From: Escherichia phage ESSI2_ev040
Direction: 5' to 3' (one strand)
Length of the DNA: 30,597 nucleotides
Sequence record: NC_049393.1
Shown: piece by piece, positions 9,625-30,597 of the stretch
Layout: each line of letters starts with the position of its first letter
Numbering within the stretch: position 1 is the stretch's first letter
The notes under the pieces: generated by a model
Told to the model about the DNA's origin: nothing
The model's database searches: none
What the model saw: the letters and a program-made list of their open reading frames with translations, nothing else
Translations under genes and position numbers: made by a program

Positions 9625-9907
9625 TCATACTCTCTCTTAAATTAATTTCGTCCACTAATTGATTATGACGCGCAGCGCACTGCCCATAAATTTCAGGATA
9701 AATTGTCAGTAATTCCGCTGCGTCTTTTCCTGTCGTACCGTTCAGGCGCGGCAGCTGCGTGGTGCATTTAGTTTTCAGGTTTTCCTGATAACGCACGCTC
9801 GGTACCGGCTGCGGCGCTGTTGTACATGCTGACAAACTCATCAGACAGACAACGATTGGTAAAAACGGGTTTAAGTATTTCCGTGCGTATCTCACGTGGT
9901 GCCACAT
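9608..9907 (-). CDS. o-spanin (Rz1-like outer-membrane lipoprotein)
   Basis: ORF in an alternative frame overlapping the 3' end of the Rz-like gene; signal-peptide-like N-terminus with lipobox LSAC; Pro-rich mature part. Confidence 0.5.
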   Translation of the reverse strand: MWHHVRYARKYLNPFLPIVVCLMSLSACTTAPQPVPSVRYQENLKTKCTTQLPRLNGTTGKDAAELLTIYPEIYGQCAARHNQLVDEINLRESMSDGTN

Positions 9908-10106
9908 TTTTTAACGCCTCCAGTTTATCTTCCAGCTCTCTGGCCGAATCACTGGCAATGCCCTGCATTACTTTTCGCGATTCATTACCGGCCACCTGCG
10001 CCGCTGTATTGATCGCCAGCTCTAAGCTGTCACGCCGCCAGTCAGCGGTCAGCCAGCCCCAGACAAACGCCAGCGCCACCACAACCAGCCACTGCCCGCT
10101 GCTCAT
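9768..10106 (-). CDS. i-spanin (Rz-like)
   Basis: 112 aa with N-terminal transmembrane segment (LVVVALAFVWGWL) and charged helical periplasmic part; follows the endolysin. Confidence 0.55.
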   Translation of the reverse strand: MSSGQWLVVVALAFVWGWLTADWRRDSLELAINTAAQVAGNESRKVMQGIASDSARELEDKLEALKNVAPREIRTEILKPVFTNRCLSDEFVSMYNSAAAGTERALSGKPEN

Positions 10107-23374: not shown

Positions 23375-23693
23375 AATGACCTCCGCCAACTAACGACTCT
23401 GTTACACCGTTTGAAATGATGTATTCCAGCACTTCAAGCGGTGACAGCGAACGGATAGATAAAACCACCCAATTTTCGGTATCAGCGATGATTTCATTCA
23501 CCGGCAACACATGGGTGATAACTGCCGCCCACTCTCGCCCGGTGTATTTCCCGTGCTTCCACTCGCACAATGAAAGAACATCACCGGTTTTATACCCGCG
23601 ATCATTTTTACGCAGTTCGGCCTTTTTCTGGCCAGCCACCACAGCATCAAGGTATTTCGGCGCAATTTTTACCGCATGGATTTTGATTATCAT
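23364..23693 (-). CDS. small PUA/ASCH-like protein (tentative)
   Basis: About 110 aa from ATG 23693 (ATGA overlap with the exonuclease stop); weak resemblance to ASCH/DUF3850-type proteins often found next to phage methyltransferases. Confidence 0.35.
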
Positions 23694-24286
23694 TTTGCAC
23701 CGCCTTGCGCTAAAGCTTTGATGACACCTAATGTCATTTTGCAATCAGCTAAAGCACGGTGTGCCTTCCCCTCGATCACAACTCCTTCATGCGCGGCGGC
23801 ATCAACTAACTTATGCCATTTATAACCGTGATATTTCCCCGGCTCGCCACGATATTCTGCATATAGTTTCATTGCGCAAACAGAATGAGCAGCAAGCATC
23901 CATGGCGCACCTTCAGAAGGTCTTCCATTCAATGCGTAGGTCTGACGAATTAACCGGAGATCATAATCGGCGTTATAGATAACAAAGCCAAAACGTCTAA
24001 TAAGTTCTTCCACTGCGCCGCATATATCTGTCCACGCAGGAGCATAGGCAACCATTTCATTTGTGATCCCATGAATGGCAATTGCTTCATCAGGAATAGG
24101 CTTAGTAGGTTTAACAAGCGTGTTAAGCAGAATAAATCCATGGCTATCAATGATGCATATTTCTACTATTTCTGCATCATCACCCAGCCCCGTGGTTTCG
24201 GTATCAATAAATAGGCGATTATCGTCAAGCCACTGTTGTGCTAACAGGCTGATAGAATACTTCAATTGCTTAGTATTCAATTCCAT
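23690..24286 (-). CDS. DnaQ-like 3'-5' exonuclease (DEDDh family)
   Basis: Exo I FIDTETTG, Exo II NADYD, Exo III HRALADC; AGGAGGT RBS 5 nt upstream of ATG 24286. Confidence 0.75.
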
Positions 24287-24510
24287 GCTGCACCTCCTTT
24301 GCTGCAAATCGCCGCTGCTTCTTCGCGGATCAACTCAACGATTTCCGTTGCGCTTAAACCTTCATTGGCCGCATGAGTGGCCAACTTATCCAGACGGGTG
24401 GAACACAGATCAGCAGCTGCGGCTTTACCTTCCTGCGTGGCTTTGGTGAGCATGGCCAGCAGGTCGGTGCCTGATTTTGTTGCGGGTAAATCCTGACGTG
24501 TCATGTGCAT
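24277..24510 (-). CDS. hypothetical early protein (77 aa)
   Basis: ORF in the early operon; no motif recognised. Confidence 0.4.
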   Translation of the reverse strand: MHMTRQDLPATKSGTDLLAMLTKATQEGKAAAADLCSTRLDKLATHAANEGLSATEIVELIREEAAAICSKGGAAWN

Positions 24511-24577
24511 TTTGGTTTCCTTAAGGCAAAAGAATCCCCGGCCACTTGAACCGTGGCCAAAAAATTCAGGCTGTTAA

Positions 24578-24979
24578 TTAGTGAAAAGTGGGTTGTACTG
24601 TGGCGGCTGAGTAGTTCGGTGCCGGAATCAGGTGCAGCTCATAGGTTGTCCGCCACCACTCCTGTATCAGCGCTATTATCTCGCCAATTCCCAACGCCCC
24701 GGCTGTATAGAAAATTGCACGAATCCCCGCCAGCGCTTCTATCTGTGCTTCTTTGCTTTCCGCTTCGCGATACACGCAGCACCAGAAAGCAGCATTGATC
24801 GCCAGCCAGTGACGCGGATTTGTCATGTGTTCAGTGTCATTGAAGAAGAACGGATGCAAAGCGATACGCCCATTTTTACTGGTGCTTTTCTCTGCAAACG
24901 CTAAAGCGTAGTTATGTGGGACGCCCCACACAGCCAGCTCTGCCCCCAACAATTTGCCCTCAACGGAAATAATGGTCAT
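24578..24979 (-). CDS. hypothetical early protein (133 aa)
   Basis: ORF in the early operon with 1-nt overlap to the upstream gene. Confidence 0.5.
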   Translation of the reverse strand: MTIISVEGKLLGAELAVWGVPHNYALAFAEKSTSKNGRIALHPFFFNDTEHMTNPRHWLAINAAFWCCVYREAESKEAQIEALAGIRAIFYTAGALGIGEIIALIQEWWRTTYELHLIPAPNYSAATVQPTFH

Positions 24980-25407
24980 TAGTGATTCCCCTGCTGCTGC
25001 AACTTATGGACGATATGAGGCGCGATCACCATCTGCACCCCGCTACTGCTATAAATTGGATGTACTTTTTTGATCGGGCGGTTCGCGGTGCGTTTCGAAA
25101 AATCGCTGTCACGTAAACTGCCGAAACCTTCAAACGTTAACCGCGCCCGTGAAATGCCCTGCCGCAGTTGAATCATGTCCCGATAGCCCAGACGTTCATA
25201 AAGCTCCCGCCAGCAGCACTTACTTAAATGGGCTTTAAATGCCCCGGTACCAGATGTAACCGCAGCAGCATGAAGCACTACGCCGCGCCACTCCGGTGTT
25301 AAGTTGTCCCACCATTCAGCGGCCTCGCTGCTTTCGCTGAAGTATTTGCGGCGGATCTGTTTTAAATGCTCCAGCCCGCGCTTTTGCTGTTCCTGGCTAA
25401 TAGCCAT
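24979..25407 (-). CDS. hypothetical early protein (142 aa)
   Basis: ORF in the early operon; no motif recognised. Confidence 0.5.
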   Translation of the reverse strand: MAISQEQQKRGLEHLKQIRRKYFSESSEAAEWWDNLTPEWRGVVLHAAAVTSGTGAFKAHLSKCCWRELYERLGYRDMIQLRQGISRARLTFEGFGSLRDSDFSKRTANRPIKKVHPIYSSSGVQMVIAPHIVHKLQQQGNH

Positions 25408-25624
25408 AGCGCCCCCCTATACATCCAACCAGGCGACGGGCTTTTGTAGACAAGAAACGCAAAATCACCCCGCTTTTCATCCGAACAGGCTCATGCGCAT
25501 TGAATTTATACGTGTGGCCTGGGTTCCAGCGCTGACCGTTCGGCAGTTCTATCCAGCCCGTTGAACCACTCGGCGACTGCATGGCTGGAGATTCTTTTTT
25601 CAGGTAAGTGACAAACGCTTTCAT
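25397..25624 (-). CDS. hypothetical early protein (75 aa), in the position of 186 fil/dhr-type genes
   Basis: Small ORF directly downstream of cII. Confidence 0.4.
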   Translation of the reverse strand: MKAFVTYLKKESPAMQSPSGSTGWIELPNGQRWNPGHTYKFNAHEPVRMKSGVILRFLSTKARRLVGCIGGRYGY

Positions 25625-25633
25625 GGTGTTCCC

Positions 25634-26137
25634 TCACATCAGGCCGGTGGCGTTGGTAGTGACCAGATCCACCGCAGCGGCCAGAACAGGCGCAGAGTGA
25701 ATACGGCTTTCAACGGTATAAGCCAGCACGGATAAGCTACGGATTGCATCGCGGGCACGATCCAGAATTTGAGTACGGCGGGCGGCGGTCATATGGCCAG
25801 TTGATACGGCTTCCCCAGCAATCGCGCCCACACACGCAGTAGCGCTCAACGCGCAAAATTGCATGTTGGCTTCAGTGGCGTTATTGACTGGAACGGAGGG
25901 CAAGCAGTTAATCTGCCCCAGCATCCCATCAAGCAAACGAGCATCTTCCGTGTAATCGGTGATAGCCAGCAGCTCGTCACAGGTCAGGCGGTGCGGTTGA
26001 ACCGGGTTCAACTTATTGCGCAGGATCTGCGGACGCATACCAACGGCAGCGGCCACATCTTCCAGATTGTGCGACAGCGCAAACGCTCGGCAAGCTGCAT
26101 CAAAATGTGCATGTTTGGAAGTTTGGTAATCAAACAT
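25634..26137 (-). CDS. cII: CII-like lysogeny establishment activator (186 CII family)
   Basis: N-terminus MFDYQTSKHAHFDAACRAF...LRNKLNP resembles 186 CII as recalled; ATG 26137 with GAGGG RBS (track start 26146 is GTG). Confidence 0.7.
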   Translation of the reverse strand: MFDYQTSKHAHFDAACRAFALSHNLEDVAAAVGMRPQILRNKLNPVQPHRLTCDELLAITDYTEDARLLDGMLGQINCLPSVPVNNATEANMQFCALSATACVGAIAGEAVSTGHMTAARRTQILDRARDAIRSLSVLAYTVESRIHSAPVLAAAVDLVTTNATGLM

Positions 26138-26169
26138 AGTCAGCACCCTCTCTGCGTTTCAAAATCGAA

Positions 26170-26391
26170 TCAGTTAAGTACGATGTTGCAACCCGCGAGG
26201 GCGTCTATGGTCAGAGCCGCGATATTGATCATGACTTTTTCACGCCCCATATCTTTGCGAAGGCGGTGACGAGGCAAGCGGCCATCTTTCAACATCGCGT
26301 CAACGGTATCTTCTGGTAAACCAGTGAGTTCGATGTATTTATCTTTTGAGATAGAAGGGACGGGTAGATTGATTGAAATGTTAGTGGTCAT
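26170..26391 (-). CDS. apl: Apl/Cox-family excisionase and switch regulator
   Basis: 73 aa with HTH-like segment YIELTGLPEDTVDAMLKDGRLP; first gene of the early operon, divergent from cI. Confidence 0.55.
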   Translation of the reverse strand: MTTNISINLPVPSISKDKYIELTGLPEDTVDAMLKDGRLPRHRLRKDMGREKVMINIAALTIDALAGCNIVLN

Positions 26392-26526
26392 AGTGCAAGA
26401 TTCCTCGCTTGGAAGTTAACCGTGGCTAGCGGTGTTAAAAGGTGAACAACCTGTTTTGGAATGTTCGCCTGCAAAATAACTTTCCAAATGCGAAGTGTCA
26501 ACCAATAACTTTCCCGAGGCGGAATT
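26392..26526. promoter_or_regulatory. lysis-lysogeny switch region between apl and cI, with direct repeats AATAACTTTCC at 26475-26485 and 26504-26514
   Basis: Intergenic region between divergent apl and cI; 11-bp direct repeats and TTTTGGAA/TTCCAAA imperfect inverted repeat seen directly. Confidence 0.55.
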
Positions 26527-27147
26527 ATGGATCTCAAAAACGGAGGCCAGGCAGTTATAACCAGGCTCCTTGAAGCTTATGGATTTAAGACAAGGCAGGC
26601 TTTATGCGACCAATTGAAAGTATCAACAAGCACCATGGGAACGAGATGGATGCGTGATGTATTCCCAGCTGACTGGGTTATACAGTGCACAATCGAAACT
26701 GGTGCATCAGTAGAATGGCTATCGTTCGGAACAGGCGAGAAATTTCCCAACGGAACCAGCAAAAACGCAAATGAGAATGAAAATTCCGCAAATGAGAACT
26801 TGTTAGGTGATGTTGTTTCTGTTACCCGAAAAAAGGTAATAGATGGAAATTTATACGATTCTAATTTTTACATGCTCGACAAAGCCATGCTCCCATCCCA
26901 CCTCAGCAAACCCATTATTATTGTGGATGATGATGTCAGCTACTTAGCCGAGCAGAAAAATGATGAATTAACAGACGGTACATGGCTTGTTGAAATTGAA
27001 GGGCAAGTGAGCATAAAAGAGCTAATACGCATTCCAGTAGGCAGGGTTCGTGTAACCTCAGTGCCTGGTAGCGCTAGTTTTGAGTGCGGTATTGATGACT
27101 TAAAACCTATCGCAAAATGCCACTACTACCTGCTGACAGATGTTTGA
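26527..27147 (+). CDS. cI: CI immunity repressor (186 CI family)
   Basis: N-terminal LLEAYGF and ETGASVEWLSFGTGE motifs resemble the 186 CI repressor N-terminal domain; upstream of int on the same strand as in 186. Confidence 0.8.
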   Translation: MDLKNGGQAVITRLLEAYGFKTRQALCDQLKVSTSTMGTRWMRDVFPADWVIQCTIETGASVEWLSFGTGEKFPNGTSKNANENENSANENLLGDVVSVTRKKVIDGNLYDSNFYMLDKAMLPSHLSKPIIIVDDDVSYLAEQKNDELTDGTWLVEIEGQVSIKELIRIPVGRVRVTSVPGSASFECGIDDLKPIAKCHYYLLTDV

Positions 27148-27225
27148 TCGAGAGTGAAACAAACATTGACACTGTATAAATAAACAGTGAATCATACCCC
27201 TATAGCAAGTAATAAGGGGTATTGA

Positions 27226-28275
27226 ATGGCTATTCGTAAACTTGAAACGGGTAAATGGCTCTGTGAATGCTACCCTTCCGGACGTTCTGGGCGCAGGGTA
27301 CGAAAACAATTTGCAACCAAAGGTGAGGCAATGGCCTTTGAGCGCCACACAATGGATGAAGCCGCGTCTAAACCCTGGCTGGGGGATGTTGTTGATCGCC
27401 GCTCTTTAAAAGACATTGTAAACCTCTGGTATAAACTGCATGGCATATCTCTTACGGCTGGCGAACACGTATATGAAAAACTACTGCTGATCGTGGACGC
27501 ACTAGGAAACCCTCTGGCTACATCGCTAACCCCAAAAATGTTTGCTCATTACCGCGATAAACGCCTAACCGGAGAGATTTATTTCAGCGAAAAATGGAAG
27601 AATGGCGCTAGCCCTGTAACGGTTAATCTTGAGCAAAGTTATTTAAGCGGTGCCTTTAGTGAACTGATTCGCTTGGGTGAATGGCTTCAGCCAAACCCTC
27701 TTGAAAACATGCGAAAATTTACCATTGCTGAAAAGGAAATGGCCTGGCTGACACATGAACAGATTGCTGAACTTCTGTATGACTGCCAGCGTCAGAACAA
27801 GCTGTTGACGCTGGTTGTGAAGATTTGCCTCAGTACAGGGGCAAGGTGGAGAGAGGCCGTCAATCTGACAAGGTCTCAGGTAACGAAGTACCGCATCACT
27901 TTCACCAGAACGAAGGGAAAGAAAAACAGAAGCATCCCTATCAGCAAGGAGCTATATGAAGAGATCACCGTGCTGAAGGGGTTTAAGTTTTTTGATGATT
28001 ACTATTTTCAATTTGCATCAGTGATGGATAAAACTTCCATCATTCTGCCGCGAGGCCAGCTAACGCACGTTCTTCGCCACACCTTTGCTGCTCACTTTAT
28101 GATGTCCGGAGGAAACATACTCGCCCTTCAAAAAATACTGGGGCACCACGATATAAAAATGACTATGCGCTATGCCCACCTCGCGCCAGATCACCTTGAA
28201 ACTGCGTTAAGGTTTAACCCCTTAGCTACTATGCAAAATGGCGACAAAATGGCGGCAGCGGTTGCCACTCCCTAA
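27226..28275 (+). CDS. int: tyrosine integrase (P2/186-type)
   Basis: 349 aa; C-terminal catalytic region with HVLRHTFA and HHDIKMTMRYAHL (conserved His/Arg/Tyr). Confidence 0.9.
   Translation: MAIRKLETGKWLCECYPSGRSGRRVRKQFATKGEAMAFERHTMDEAASKPWLGDVVDRRSLKDIVNLWYKLHGISLTAGEHVYEKLLLIVDALGNPLATSLTPKMFAHYRDKRLTGEIYFSEKWKNGASPVTVNLEQSYLSGAFSELIRLGEWLQPNPLENMRKFTIAEKEMAWLTHEQIAELLYDCQRQNKLLTLVVKICLSTGARWREAVNLTRSQVTKYRITFTRTKGKKNRSIPISKELYEEITVLKGFKFFDDYYFQFASVMDKTSIILPRGQLTHVLRHTFAAHFMMSGGNILALQKILGHHDIKMTMRYAHLAPDHLETALRFNPLATMQNGDKMAAAVATP
28239..28260 (+). repeat. 22-bp direct repeat copy 1 (TGGCGACAAAATGGCGGCAGCG) inside the int 3' end; copy 2 at 28422-28443
   Basis: 21/22 identity between the two copies, seen directly. 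Confidence 0.8.
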
Positions 28276-28337
28276 CCTTTAATACTCCTAACTACTCTTT
28301 TAACTTATTGAGTTTAAAGCAAGTAATTGTTTTTCCT

Positions 28338-28366
28338 AACCCATTTATATAAATGGGTTTTTTGTT
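28338..28366 (+). terminator. rho-independent terminator after int
   Basis: Perfect 22-nt palindrome AACCCATTTATATAAATGGGTT followed by TTTTTTGTT. Confidence 0.7.
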
Positions 28367-28421
28367 GCCTGTTATATTAGTCTCTTAAAACCAACCACTT
28401 ACCCCCTCTCACTAAAGCCAT

Positions 28422-28443
28422 TGGCGACAAAATGGCGACAGCG
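28422..28443 (+). repeat. 22-bp direct repeat copy 2 (TGGCGACAAAATGGCGACAGCG) spanning the Abi_C-like ORF start
   Basis: 21/22 identity to 28239-28260; candidate att core or recombination scar. Confidence 0.8.
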
Positions 28444-29286
28444 TACAAACACGTTGATGGAGTCTATATGGGACGACAAATTCCGCAGCCAGTCATTTCA
28501 GTTTTATCTGACCACATGGCGGCAGTTGAAACACACGCAACCATGAATAGTTTATTCATGTACGCAGACGCTCCAGGGGATGCTCCAGATTTAGCAAAAC
28601 CAGCAAAGGCGCAGGATTGGCTTAGAAGAATCAACAAAGAATGTGATGACCCACTCGCAATTCTTGGTCGATTGATTGAAGGCTATATGGAAGCTGACCT
28701 GCCTAAAGGCAGCGTATTCAGTTGGGAGCAACCTAAGGTTGATTTCATAGAAAAGATGACTGATTTGCTTGGTCGGTACGGCCTGCGGTATCTAACTGGA
28801 GGTCATATTTCTGATGGGGCATCGCTTACTTCGGTTACTCTCAAAGAAGCGATTGGAAAACGCAACATACCTGCTGTTGAAATGGAGTTTTCCAGAGCGC
28901 TTGAAAATATCCACACTGATCCACGAGAAGCTGTCTCCGCAGCTTGTAACATTATGGAATCAACCTTTAAGGTTTACATCGCCGATGAGAAGCTGCCCAC
29001 CCCTGCTAAACAAGATTTGCAGGGACTCTGGAAAGTTGTCCGTGAATCCTTGGGGCTAGATACTAAAGCCGTTGAAGATGAAGACCTTAAACGTATTTTG
29101 AGTGGCTTATATTCGTTAACTGATGGGATCGGAGCTTTAAGAACTCATGCAAGTTCTGCCCATGGAGCCGGGAGAAAGATATATAACTTAAAACCTCGCC
29201 ATGCTCGGTTAGCTATAAATGCAGCACATACGTTAACTATGTATATCCTTGAATCTTGGGATGAGCAGAAACAAAAGAAATCTTAA
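28432..29286 (+). CDS. Abi_C-domain-like protein (putative abortive infection / exclusion protein); alternative start ATG 28468 has a GGAG RBS
   Basis: C-terminal LRTHASSAHGAG...KPRHARLAINAAHTLTMYILE resembles the Abi_C domain as recalled; AT-richer than the phage core; own terminator downstream. Confidence 0.45.
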   Translation: MATAYKHVDGVYMGRQIPQPVISVLSDHMAAVETHATMNSLFMYADAPGDAPDLAKPAKAQDWLRRINKECDDPLAILGRLIEGYMEADLPKGSVFSWEQPKVDFIEKMTDLLGRYGLRYLTGGHISDGASLTSVTLKEAIGKRNIPAVEMEFSRALENIHTDPREAVSAACNIMESTFKVYIADEKLPTPAKQDLQGLWKVVRESLGLDTKAVEDEDLKRILSGLYSLTDGIGALRTHASSAHGAGRKIYNLKPRHARLAINAAHTLTMYILESWDEQKQKKS

Positions 29287-29341
29287 CTACATGTTAGACA
29301 ACATGTTTTTCAGTTTTGAAATTATGTCATCTTCTATGAAT

Positions 29342-29376
29342 CCCGCGCCAGTTCTCGCTTTGCGGGTTTTTCTTTG
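29342..29376 (+). terminator. putative rho-independent terminator after the Abi_C-like gene
   Basis: GC stem CCCGC(G)...(T)GCGGG followed by TTTTTCTTTGTT. Confidence 0.5.
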
Positions 29377-29632
29377 TTCGCCTCACCTCAAGATTTTGAT
29401 CTTCTGGCCTAACATAAAATAAATAATACCATTATTTATCAGATAGTTATTATTACTTATCGATCCTCCGTAGATCTATAAAAATGGAAAAAGCTGAAAT
29501 TCTTTTCAATCTTTTCAGTTACAGTTCTCCAGCAAGCCTCCAGCAGTGGCGCGGCCTAGCGATACCGTTTGTAGAAAAATAAAACTGAAAAAATTTCCAG
29601 ATCCAGAAACCGCAGGCGGGTGCCAGAGTAGA

Positions 29633-29665
29633 TCGTCGGCAGCGTCAGATGTGTATAAGAGACAG
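29633..29665 (+). other. exact Illumina Nextera Read-1 transposase adapter (TCGTCGGCAGCGTCAGATGTGTATAAGAGACAG) embedded in the sequence
   Basis: 33/33 nt match to the widely used adapter, including the synthetic Tn5 mosaic end; no second inverted end or transposase nearby. Confidence 0.9.
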
Positions 29666-29968
29666 GTGTAGCGCCGTTTTTGTCTGCGAAAGATTTATTT
29701 CTCTATCATATGACCATACCAGCGTAACGCCACGCTTCGGATCTTTTACACTTGGTGCGCGGGATTGGGTTTGTTACTAAAGGGGTTAAAATGCGTCTGG
29801 CTACGTCTATGACGATGTGAGAAATAGATTTATGACAGTAACCCAACTAAATCATTTTGGATGAAGTAGTCCACTATCAGATCGAACCACATAACCTAGT
29901 GTTGCTAGCAGAAAATCAGACCATTCCCATGTTACGATAATCGTCAGGATTATTGGGACGGACAATTT

Positions 29969-30523
29969 ATGAGCAGCAGCAAAAAAACGCACTACGAGGA
30001 AATGAAGCAGTTATTGTGCGCGGACATACTGAGTAACAGTAAAAAATTCTCATGGAGAAGAATCATACTACGTTGCTGGAGACAGCCCGGATACCGGTTC
30101 ATGTGTTGGTGGAGAATAGCGAATTGCCTTTACTGCCAGGGTGGGAGAGCAAGAGTGAAATGGGCGCGAAGAATCCACCGGAGACTTGTTTCAAAATATA
30201 ATACTGATATTGGGTTGGGGGCACAGATCGGGGAAAAATTCAAAATTTATCACTTCGTTGGAATAGTCATTTGTCCCCAGGCTGTGATTGGTAAGAATGT
30301 GCGTATCCGTCAAAACATAACAATTGGATTAAAAACAGTTGAGGGAATCAAAGCCATCAGGATCGGAGACAATGTCGAGATTGGTGCAAATTCGTGCATC
30401 ATCGGTGATGACCTGACTATTGGTGATAACGTGACAATTGGCGCTATGTCATTTGTTAACAGAGACGTCCCCGCCAATAGCGTTTATATAACCCGCAAAA
30501 GCCATACAATCACCACTGCCTGA
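29969..30523 (+). CDS. hexapeptide-repeat acetyltransferase (left-handed beta-helix family, WbbJ/WcaB-like)
   Basis: 184 aa; repeated [LIV]-G-x-x-x-x hexapeptide units (IGKNVRI, IGDNVEIG, IGDNVTIG); AT-rich, outside the phage core. Confidence 0.6.
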   Translation: MSSSKKTHYEEMKQLLCADILSNSKKFSWRRIILRCWRQPGYRFMCWWRIANCLYCQGGRARVKWARRIHRRLVSKYNTDIGLGAQIGEKFKIYHFVGIVICPQAVIGKNVRIRQNITIGLKTVEGIKAIRIGDNVEIGANSCIIGDDLTIGDNVTIGAMSFVNRDVPANSVYITRKSHTITTA

Positions 30524-30597
30524 TACCCATTTTATTTCGAAATCTTCTGGACTACCCAACAATTGGTAAGGATAGTCCAGAACGTCTCTATTTATCA

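Follow-up and report, generated by a model that had tools for sequence, protein, structure and literature searches.

The window analysed here is the entire 30597-nucleotide (nt) record of Escherichia phage ESSI2_ev040 (NC_049393.1), and our subject is its stretch at positions 26500-30597, which an earlier note had judged by eye to be AT-richer from the repressor gene cI rightward. On the plus strand this stretch encodes a CI-type repressor, a tyrosine integrase, an abortive-infection (Abi) protein and an acetyltransferase, and the labels that the note had given to these four genes all hold, as each protein matches Pfam families above the gathering scores. The repressor (206 amino acids, aa; 26527-27147) matches PF07022 with 87.8 bits (cut-off 22) and PF16452 with 101.8 bits (cut-off 27), and its sequence is named 'phage repressor protein CI' in records of Citrobacter farmeri and C. 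amalonaticus. The integrase (349 aa; 27226-28275) matches PF24624 (Int_N) and PF00589, both over the cut-offs. It is followed by an Abi_C 'abortive infection family' protein (272 aa; 28468-29286; PF14355 with 75.1 bits, cut-off 24) and by a hexapeptide-repeat acetyltransferase of the left-handed beta-helix (LbH) type (184 aa; 29969-30523; PF00132 with 41.1 bits, cut-off 27). Public records attach ESSI2_ev040 names to the sequences of three of these proteins, namely the acetyltransferase ('serine acetyltransferase [Escherichia phage ESSI2_ev040]'), the Abi protein and the integrase ('integrase [Escherichia phage ESSI2_ev040]'). To the left of cI, a minus-strand gene (26170-26391) encodes a 73-aa Apl/Cox-like excisionase-repressor that matches PHROG 575, 'Cox-like excisionase and repressor' (E = 1.5e-22). 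The window was compared with the related phages ev015 and ev129, which like ESSI2_ev040 are assigned to Quadragintavirus, as well as with ev239 (Evevirus) and Cronobacter phage ESSI-2 (Seongnamvirus).

The GC content of 26500-30597 is 0.434, against 0.520 for positions 1-26499, and the stretch is the lowest in GC among all 4098-nt (4.1-kb) intervals of the genome. Intervals of that length lying wholly left of 26500 have a mean GC of 0.519 with a standard deviation (sd) of 0.016 and a minimum of 0.496, so that the stretch stands ~5.4 sd under them. The five genes of this AT-rich block, counting apl/cox (46.8%) with the four to its right, have GC contents of 43-47% each; cI has 43.0%, with a GC content at third codon positions (GC3) of 0.41. 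Pooled GC3 is 0.443 in the block, 0.551 in 35 backbone genes and 0.631 in nine host genes flanking the integrated copies of the phage, where the host DNA is itself GC-rich (53%, GC3 0.63). Synonymous codon usage also differs between block and backbone (chi-square 263, 41 degrees of freedom, p = 3e-34), and the distance of the block in relative synonymous codon usage, 0.103 against a null of 0.053 +/- 0.008, was reached by none of 2000 random sets of backbone genes of equal size. The most AT-rich part is the non-coding stretch around the phage attachment site attP (33% GC), while the first GC-rich backbone gene beside the block, which encodes a baseplate protein, has 54.3% GC. Strand bias was rejected as the cause of the low GC, as terL and the portal gene share the strand yet have 51% GC and GC3 is shifted too; the shift in GC3 likewise disposes of amino-acid composition alone. 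The AT-rich stretch is thus confirmed as real and well beyond chance. The sliding-window GC and codon-usage analyses that the earlier note had proposed bear out its visual impression, as does the comparison with host genes of the flank. Its placing of the onset at 26500 needs adjusting, since the best single GC change point is at 26306, within apl/cox and ~200 nt earlier.

The position of this stretch at the right end of the record, as the earlier note had framed it, is due to the point at which the circle was linearised. The exact acetyltransferase protein is present on 16 public contigs, and the order in integrated copies is host potFG, ybjN, rimK, nfsA, ybjC, grxA, ybjM and ybjL, then the Abi_C gene, the acetyltransferase gene, the gene of a 567-aa baseplate protein and the tail genes. 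In lysogen L001, window positions 28353-30597 are followed directly by window positions 1-9926 (L001 10629 to 10630), and the end of the window is contiguous with its start in lysogens L001-L003 and L005. Consequently, the window is a circular permutation of a genome without a true end here, base 30597 being joined to base 1 in the lysogens, and it represents the excised attP form (int-attP-Abi), from which the host DNA flanking the lysogens (potF to ybjL) is missing. The record was opened 74 nt past the stop of the acetyltransferase gene and 14 nt before the stop codon, at the low-coordinate end, of the minus-strand baseplate gene (15-1718; PHROG 2258, E = 1e-276), which marks the boundary outside the block. 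The 88-nt spacer between these two convergent genes is unbroken in the lysogens and contains a 13-nt inverted repeat (30545-30582) that is possibly a bidirectional terminator. When the genome was treated as a circle, after removal of an adapter remnant described below, and two boundaries were fitted, segmentation gave a GC-rich arc at 41-26305 (0.521) and an AT-rich arc from 26306 to ~40 (0.432) and raised the log-likelihood by 57.9 nats.

These composition boundaries lie close to places where similarity to the relatives breaks off. The backbones of ev015 and ev129 are 95-98% identical to the window at the nucleotide level. For ev015, identity is 98.3% over 19-26140, after which nucleotide similarity is lost, and its Apl, CI and integrase share only 44, 38 and 46% aa identity with those of the window. 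For ev129, which has an identical (100%) integrase and a 97% identical Apl, identity of 97.5% over 24277-28371 ends exactly at the right edge of the att core, beyond which the cargo is different. The reverse combination is found in two prophage remnants (contigs L004 and L006), where the cargo has 100% protein identity to that of the window and the cII-apl-cI-int segment has only 82% nucleotide identity (CI, 71% aa). Divergent alleles (CI 38%, integrase 46% and acetyltransferase 43% aa identity) are thus set in a backbone with 97-98% nucleotide identity. The outer breakpoints, 26140 and ~19, fall within 165 nt and ~20 nt, respectively, of the composition boundaries, and a third breakpoint, 28371, lies inside the block. 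Judged by these alignments, the arc appears to be made up of at least three independently exchanging cassettes, with exchange junctions at the cII/apl intergenic region, the att core, a conserved island between the two cargo genes that probably contains cos, and the end of the baseplate gene. Site-specific recombination of an infecting phage with a prophage or remnant already resident in that attB would be expected to leave a break exactly at the core, and L004 and L006 show that such remnants exist.

The composition of the corresponding parts was compared in five genomes (the window, ev015, ev129, ev239 and ESSI-2). GC contents range from 52 to 56% in the backbone, from 43 to 51% in the lysogeny module and from 41 to 48% in the cargo slot. 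The cargo slot is AT-richer than the backbone in all five and the lysogeny module in four of them, the 50.8% of the ev239 lysogeny module being the sole value near that of its own backbone. As these positions are AT-rich whatever allele they hold, low GC is a standing property of the accessory pool and not the mark of one recent import. The mosaic acquisition suggested in the earlier note is therefore well supported as regards exchange, by the breakpoints with ev015, ev129 and the remnants. A one-off recent import is not supported, given that the relatives are AT-rich too.

The left part of the arc has the make-up of a 186/P2-type lysogeny module. CI combines a Phage_CI_repr helix-turn-helix (HTH) domain with a Phage_CI_C domain, the genes of Cox/Apl and CII (CP76; PF06892, 158.8 bits) are divergent to cI-int, and int adjoins attP. 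The region between apl (minus strand) and cI (plus strand), 26392-26526, would by analogy correspond to a lysogeny switch of the 186 layout; a single promoter-like site was found there, on the minus strand at 26501-26473, by consensus match only. In CI, the HTH and C-terminal domains are joined at residues ~77-92 (26755-26800) by a low-complexity linker rich in Asn and Glu, NANENENSANEN, whose coding sequence is an imperfect AAT-GAG-AA repeat.

The attP core region (28338-28371, plus strand) consists of a hairpin with a T-run (28338-28359) and a 19-nt core, ATGGGTTTTTTGTTGCCTG, at 28353-28371, which is identical in attP, in the attL of all lysogens and at both ends of remnant L004 (attL 8426, attR 16977). 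Homology to the int-side flank stops at 28371 and homology to the attL side of the lysogens begins at 28353. The core corresponds to the 3' half and T-run of the terminator of host ybjL, whose hairpin is rebuilt by the phage copy, and the matching host stretch is annotated as attR in Klebsiella phage 4LV2017. A tRNA scan of the window found none, so that the att site lies outside any tRNA gene, and an Rfam scan of the window at the gathering threshold gave no match. On either side of the core, a 22-nt direct repeat with the consensus TGGCGACAAAATGGCG(G/A)CAGCG occurs on the plus strand, its left copy, TGGCGACAAAATGGCGGCAGCG, at 28239-28260, overlapping the 3' end of int, and its right copy, TGGCGACAAAATGGCGACAGCG, at 28422-28443. 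The left copy, in which Tandem Repeats Finder (TRF) detects a period of 11, is kept at the attR of remnant L004. In ev129, which has the same integrase, the flank to the right of the core is unrelated, yet TGGCGACAAAGTGGCGACA is retained at an equal distance from the core. This retention supports an arm-type role, and we regard the two repeats as candidate integrase arm sites of the P and P' arms, respectively. The remnant-bearing contigs L004 (8426-16995) and L006 are themselves of Citrobacter type and hold a heavily deleted related prophage at this attB; fusions in it join the baseplate gene to a tail-fibre fragment and the baseplate J gene to cII.

Between the Abi and acetyltransferase genes lies the conserved island (29339-29700), which is 75-84% identical to ev015 and ev129 over 29339/29485-29623 amid unrelated cargo. 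It contains a 15-mer, GCGGGTGCGGTGTAG, that in the window is split into 29616-29623 and 29666-29671. The independently sequenced ESSI-2 record both starts and ends with this 15-mer, and the records of ev015, ev129 and ev239 all end within it. The two parts of the split copy are separated by a 42-nt plus-strand sequencing artefact (29624-29665), a C followed by AGAGTAGA and TCGTCGGCAGCGTCAGATGTGTATAAGAGACAG. We take the last 33 nt, exactly matched at 29633-29665, to be the Nextera read-1 adapter and AGAGTAGA to be an i5 index. Many unrelated phage records match the adapter stretch, and the insert is missing from every integrated copy. Adapter remnants also abut both ends of the ev129 record (L010 1-43 and 30880-30927), the left end of ev015 (L009 1-48) and the right end of ev239. 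According to the source paper, read 2 was clipped only from TGTAGATCTCGG... onwards (PMC6969025), which leaves exactly the remnant at 29624-29665. Most simply, a linear contig terminating at a physical DNA end was rotated afterwards, and the adapter then marks cos as lying within the AT-rich arc, with one cargo gene on either side. We thus consider it probable that cos lies at ~29616 and that the virion DNA ends fall between the Abi and acetyltransferase genes. The earlier note had remarked on neither attP, cos nor the adapter remnant in this stretch.

The Abi_C gene probably starts at 28468 and not at the start of the longest open reading frame (ORF), 28432, which would give a protein of 284 aa. 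The 272-aa form is the one called in the lysogens, homologues begin at MGRQIPQP, and the additional codons (28432-28467) overlap the right-hand arm repeat. An exact look-up found no record of the 284-aa form, as expected if the real gene is the shorter one. The PADLOC profile of AbiJ matches the protein in its C-terminal part only (positions 170-278 of 281, E = 3e-16) and not over its full length, and no family in the Pfam, NCBIfam or PADLOC profiles matches the N-terminal half. Among 13 diverse Abi_C homologues, R225, H227, H232 and R244-H245 are invariant, an arrangement that, presuming the equation of Abi_C with HEPN holds, is compatible with the HEPN Rx4-6H motif. Homologues with 57-61% identity occur in Acinetobacter, Vibrio and Legionella, whereas the gene is missing from ev015, ev129, ev239 and ESSI-2, and a search of PDB sequences with the protein returned nothing significant. 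Some records label it 'HrpA ATP-dependent RNA helicase', a name we rejected as the protein has no helicase domain and only Abi_C. The protein is predicted to be a HEPN-like defence effector carried as phage cargo, with a likely role in abortive infection or another form of defence.

The acetyltransferase belongs to PHROG 2154, a phage family of unknown function (E = 6e-59), and its H95 is invariant in eight homologues, as would be expected of a catalytic-type His. Its sequence affinities suggest a place in the CysE/WcaB/EpsC-like branch of LbH proteins, and it is moron cargo beside the baseplate gene. The cargo of the window has marks of morons: the Abi_C gene is missing from the relatives, the allele and position of the acetyltransferase vary among them, and the composition departs from that of the neighbouring genes (44% GC against 52%). 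Candidate moron signals, i.e., a promoter-like site at 29680-29709, a terminator-like site at 29354-29366 and the hairpin at 30545-30582, are at the level of consensus matches, with counts not above those in shuffled sequence. An acetyltransferase occupies the slot in four of four coliphage isolates (ev040, ev015, ev129 and ev239): in ev015 and ev129 it is a 43%-identical LbH enzyme on the opposite side of cos, and in ev239 an unrelated 367-aa O-acetyltransferase of the Acyl_transf_3 family. PADLOC matched none of three acetyltransferases searched and none of the hypothetical proteins of ev015. Outside these phages, a 46%-identical homologue lies in the waa lipopolysaccharide (LPS)-core cluster of Leminorella grimontii, where it adjoins a WaaL-like ligase gene and has GT4, GT8 and WaaY genes and a 258-aa ORF of unknown family upstream, and a 74%-identical homologue in C. 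sedlakii adjoins the tail-fibre genes of an unrelated prophage. In Enterobacter (L094-L096, 6001-7955), a 45%-identical homologue and a 389-aa protein without a family match form a pair beside mug-rpoD; a 186-like prophage (cI-int) is directly adjacent to the pair in one contig and absent in two others, as if the pair sat at or beside the attB of that phage.

A host polysaccharide-modification context for the acetyltransferase, which the earlier note had put forward, is favoured by the homologue in the waa cluster and by the Acyl_transf_3 enzyme in the ev239 slot; the LbH homologues of ev015 and ev129 and the one beside tail-fibre genes in C. sedlakii point the same way. This evidence is circumstantial, and the context is plausible but unproven. 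That the substrate is a surface polysaccharide in general is to our mind a serious possibility that falls a little short of probable. A more specific proposal, which we advance tentatively, is that a dedicated slot by cos and attP is filled with fast-swapping, highly divergent LbH alleles or an unrelated Acyl_transf_3 enzyme. Their target would be the LPS core or O-antigen that serves as receptor for the phage or its competitors, and in Citrobacter and Escherichia its acetylation would lead to superinfection exclusion of an allele-specific kind or to serotype conversion.

Based on the composition steps and homology breaks described above, we propose, with considerable confidence, that this AT-rich DNA forms the lysogeny-and-cargo arc of a 186/HP1-like temperate phage in its excised form, built of exchangeable cassettes from a shared AT-rich pool. 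One cassette would comprise apl-cI-int and the left half of attP, another the cargo slot between the att core and cos, here holding the Abi_C/HEPN-type defence gene, and the third the cargo slot between cos and the baseplate gene, here holding the hexapeptide acetyltransferase. Recombination at a few fixed junctions would shuffle these cassettes among related phages, and their accessory gene pool would exceed the phage backbone and the enterobacterial hosts alike in AT content; it would follow from such a pool and such junctions that composition steps coincide with homology breaks. In the lysogen, CI, Apl and Int would govern immunity as well as insertion at the ybjL terminator, the Abi_C protein may defend its host against other phages, and the acetyltransferase may O-acetylate a precursor of a surface polysaccharide, most likely LPS core or O-antigen, and so alter receptor or antigen properties.

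Two other readings take the shift to be no property of the phage. If it marked a prophage-host junction, the DNA right of int, with the Abi and acetyltransferase genes, would be chromosomal DNA of the host or part of an adjacent island. Prophages normally end with int, the att core follows just after this gene here, and the 45%-identical acetyltransferase homologue of Enterobacter stands beside rpoD-mug without a prophage. This is very improbable, because the window is in the attP form and lacks the host flank from potF to ybjL, which is moreover GC-rich, the end of the window runs unbroken into the baseplate gene, the Abi protein and acetyltransferase are recorded as proteins of a virion-derived genome, and the shift starts 2 kb ahead of att, inside apl. 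An assembly chimera or a contaminant joined through the adapter is suggested by the 42-nt remnant within the region and is the least credible of the accounts considered: independent Citrobacter genome and metagenome assemblies are contiguous across the site with the adapter alone missing (net 41 nt), composition is alike on the two sides of the adapter (41.6 and 42.8%), and its location at the probable cos end is what a contig incompletely trimmed and then rotated would show. Selection on function has a much better claim, and we regard it as possible, though not the likelier account, that low GC is kept by switch promoters, Int and integration host factor (IHF) sites or silencing, e.g., by H-NS, with the mosaicism incidental. 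AT-richness at these positions in every relative, whatever the allele, and the extreme AT-richness of the non-coding attP stretch fit this explanation. So does the integrase, whose 90%-identity cluster includes members from Klebsiella and Enterobacter while the module stays at ~45% GC, a composition that tracks no host; Klebsiella and Enterobacter are genera of 55-57% GC. It accounts less well for the shift in GC3 and codon usage of the coding parts and for the coincidence of the boundaries with recombination breakpoints. Selection-maintained AT-richness nonetheless complements exchange, and the two are compatible.

The identity of the acetyltransferase calls for a similar weighing, as the enzyme could be a metabolic serine O-acetyltransferase, i.e., a CysE-like auxiliary metabolic gene product. 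Databases name it 'serine acetyltransferase', and its best PDB and NCBIfam matches are serine acetyltransferases or EpsC. The NCBIfam scores, however, are far under the cut-offs (EpsC, 88.8 against 150; CysE, 74.5 against 210.65; WcaB, 70.5 against 196), as is the score of 51 against 397 for PRK11132, so that the protein falls short of the curated equivalog thresholds of CysE (TIGR01172/PRK11132), WcaB and EpsC. Most serine acetyltransferase chains in PDB are 270-340 aa long, and the alignment covers just their C-terminal half (residues ~105-270); the N-terminal part of these enzymes has no counterpart in the 184-aa protein, in which neither a match to the Pfam domain SATase_N nor an N-terminal helical domain was found. 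The sub-threshold scores and the restricted alignment leave the database name unsupported. Homologues lie in the LPS-core cluster and beside tail-fibre genes, and a non-homologous membrane O-acetyltransferase fills the slot in ev239. We therefore regard a CysE-like metabolic role as improbable.

Several observations weigh against the exchange of AT-rich cassettes as we propose it. The backbone has smaller AT-rich patches of its own, e.g., the TAC gene (9364-9621) with 39% GC and the exonuclease gene with 44%, and the match between the change point at 26306 and the ev015 breakpoint at 26140, which are 165 nt apart, is approximate. No donor lineage can be named, so that 'acquisition' amounts to exchange among members of a pool, and the low GC may owe its persistence to selection on regulatory DNA, silencing or low expression and not to its origin. 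The slot of ESSI-2 is without an acetyltransferase, and the closest curated families of the enzyme are serine acetyltransferases. Finally, the presumed acetyltransferase substrate and Abi activity are read from homology and gene context, and the assignment of cos is based on record ends and not on an end-mapping experiment.

Several observations bear on the host of the phage. Proteins identical to those of the window occur in C. farmeri, C. amalonaticus and C. sedlakii, the host flank of the lysogens is only 81% identical to E. coli, and NfsA encoded in that flank is the C. amalonaticus/farmeri protein. This fits the suspicion voiced in the source paper that its four ESSI2-like isolates from viromes came from Citrobacter or E. 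albertii (PMC6969025). Complete E. coli genomes gave only partial integrase matches of at most 88% and neither the Abi nor the acetyltransferase gene, which shows that the host is not a typical E. coli. An exact search for the attL junction in species-representative genomes found none. The natural lysogens of ESSI2_ev040 are thus, in our reading, Citrobacter.

AT bias is general in mobile DNA, and an AT-rich accessory block is a familiar feature of temperate phages, found here in an already public genome. The accessory genes of P2 (old, tin and Z/fun) are AT-rich and non-essential, with lower GC than the essential genes, and the cargo of ESSI2_ev040 resembles them in this respect. The lysogeny region shares with 186 and P2 both its protein families (CI, Cox/Apl, CII CP76 and an integrase adjoining attP) and the divergent layout. 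Unlike in P2, attB is the ybjL terminator and the cargo consists of the Abi_C and LbH acetyltransferase genes instead of old, tin and fun. Unlike in P2 and 186, cos adjoins attP and the cargo and not the portal gene, and a cos consensus of the P2/186 type is absent from the window with up to three mismatches allowed. In the virion DNA of Haemophilus phage HP1, int lies near one end and the last tail genes at the other. The genome of ESSI2_ev040 is similar in that its probable ends lie between the last tail/baseplate gene and int, and it also has a 181-aa neighbour with an HP1_ORF34 domain. ESSI2-like phages differ in having two cargo slots flanking cos, and the likeness to HP1 drawn here concerns genome organisation. 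Within the group, the tested tail and baseplate proteins of ev015, ev129 and ev239 are 92-100% identical to those of the window and the architecture is common to all, including ESSI-2, whereas immunity and integrase alleles and att sites differ in ev015, ev239 and ESSI-2, and the cargo differs in all of these relatives. Public ESSI2-like prophages number in the hundreds, in Citrobacter, Enterobacter and Salmonella.

The cargo genes also have parallels elsewhere. The likeness of the Abi_C protein to AbiJ is confined to the shared C-terminal Abi_C domain, only the C-terminal 110 residues matching the AbiJ profile. The ev239 enzyme is of the Acyl_transf_3 family, the membrane family to which the acetyltransferase Oac belongs. 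Oac is encoded by Shigella phage Sf6 (PMC3630932). Prophage CUS-3 encodes NeuO, a polysialic acid O-acetyltransferase with hexapeptide repeats whose target is the K1 capsule (PMC3046976). NeuO sets a precedent for the acetyltransferase of ESSI2_ev040, which belongs with it to the LbH superfamily and is likewise prophage cargo with a possible effect on surface polysaccharide. The two have no specific sequence relationship, NeuO not being among the PDB matches at E <= 1e-5, and TRF finds no phase-variable 5' repeat tract of the NeuO type at or just past 29969.

To the extent that the cassettes exchange as proposed, ESSI2_ev040 provides a worked example, in a small phage of the P2 family, of composition steps that coincide with cassette-exchange junctions. 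The map of this reference genome, from which the genus name Quadragintavirus appears to be derived, is clarified by the attP core in the ybjL terminator, the probable cos and the likely Abi start, adapter remnants are flagged in the records of ev040, ev015, ev129 and ev239, and the labels 'HrpA helicase' and 'serine acetyltransferase' are found to be unsupported. Should the acetyltransferase indeed act on LPS, its slot would be a compact system for receptor-level exclusion.

A second small AT-rich patch, at 23748-24276 within the exonuclease gene (23690-24280), has 43.8% GC and a GC3 of 0.36. It shows ~73% or no similarity to ev129 and, as it overlaps this dissimilar stretch, looks like another swapped cassette, within the replication module.

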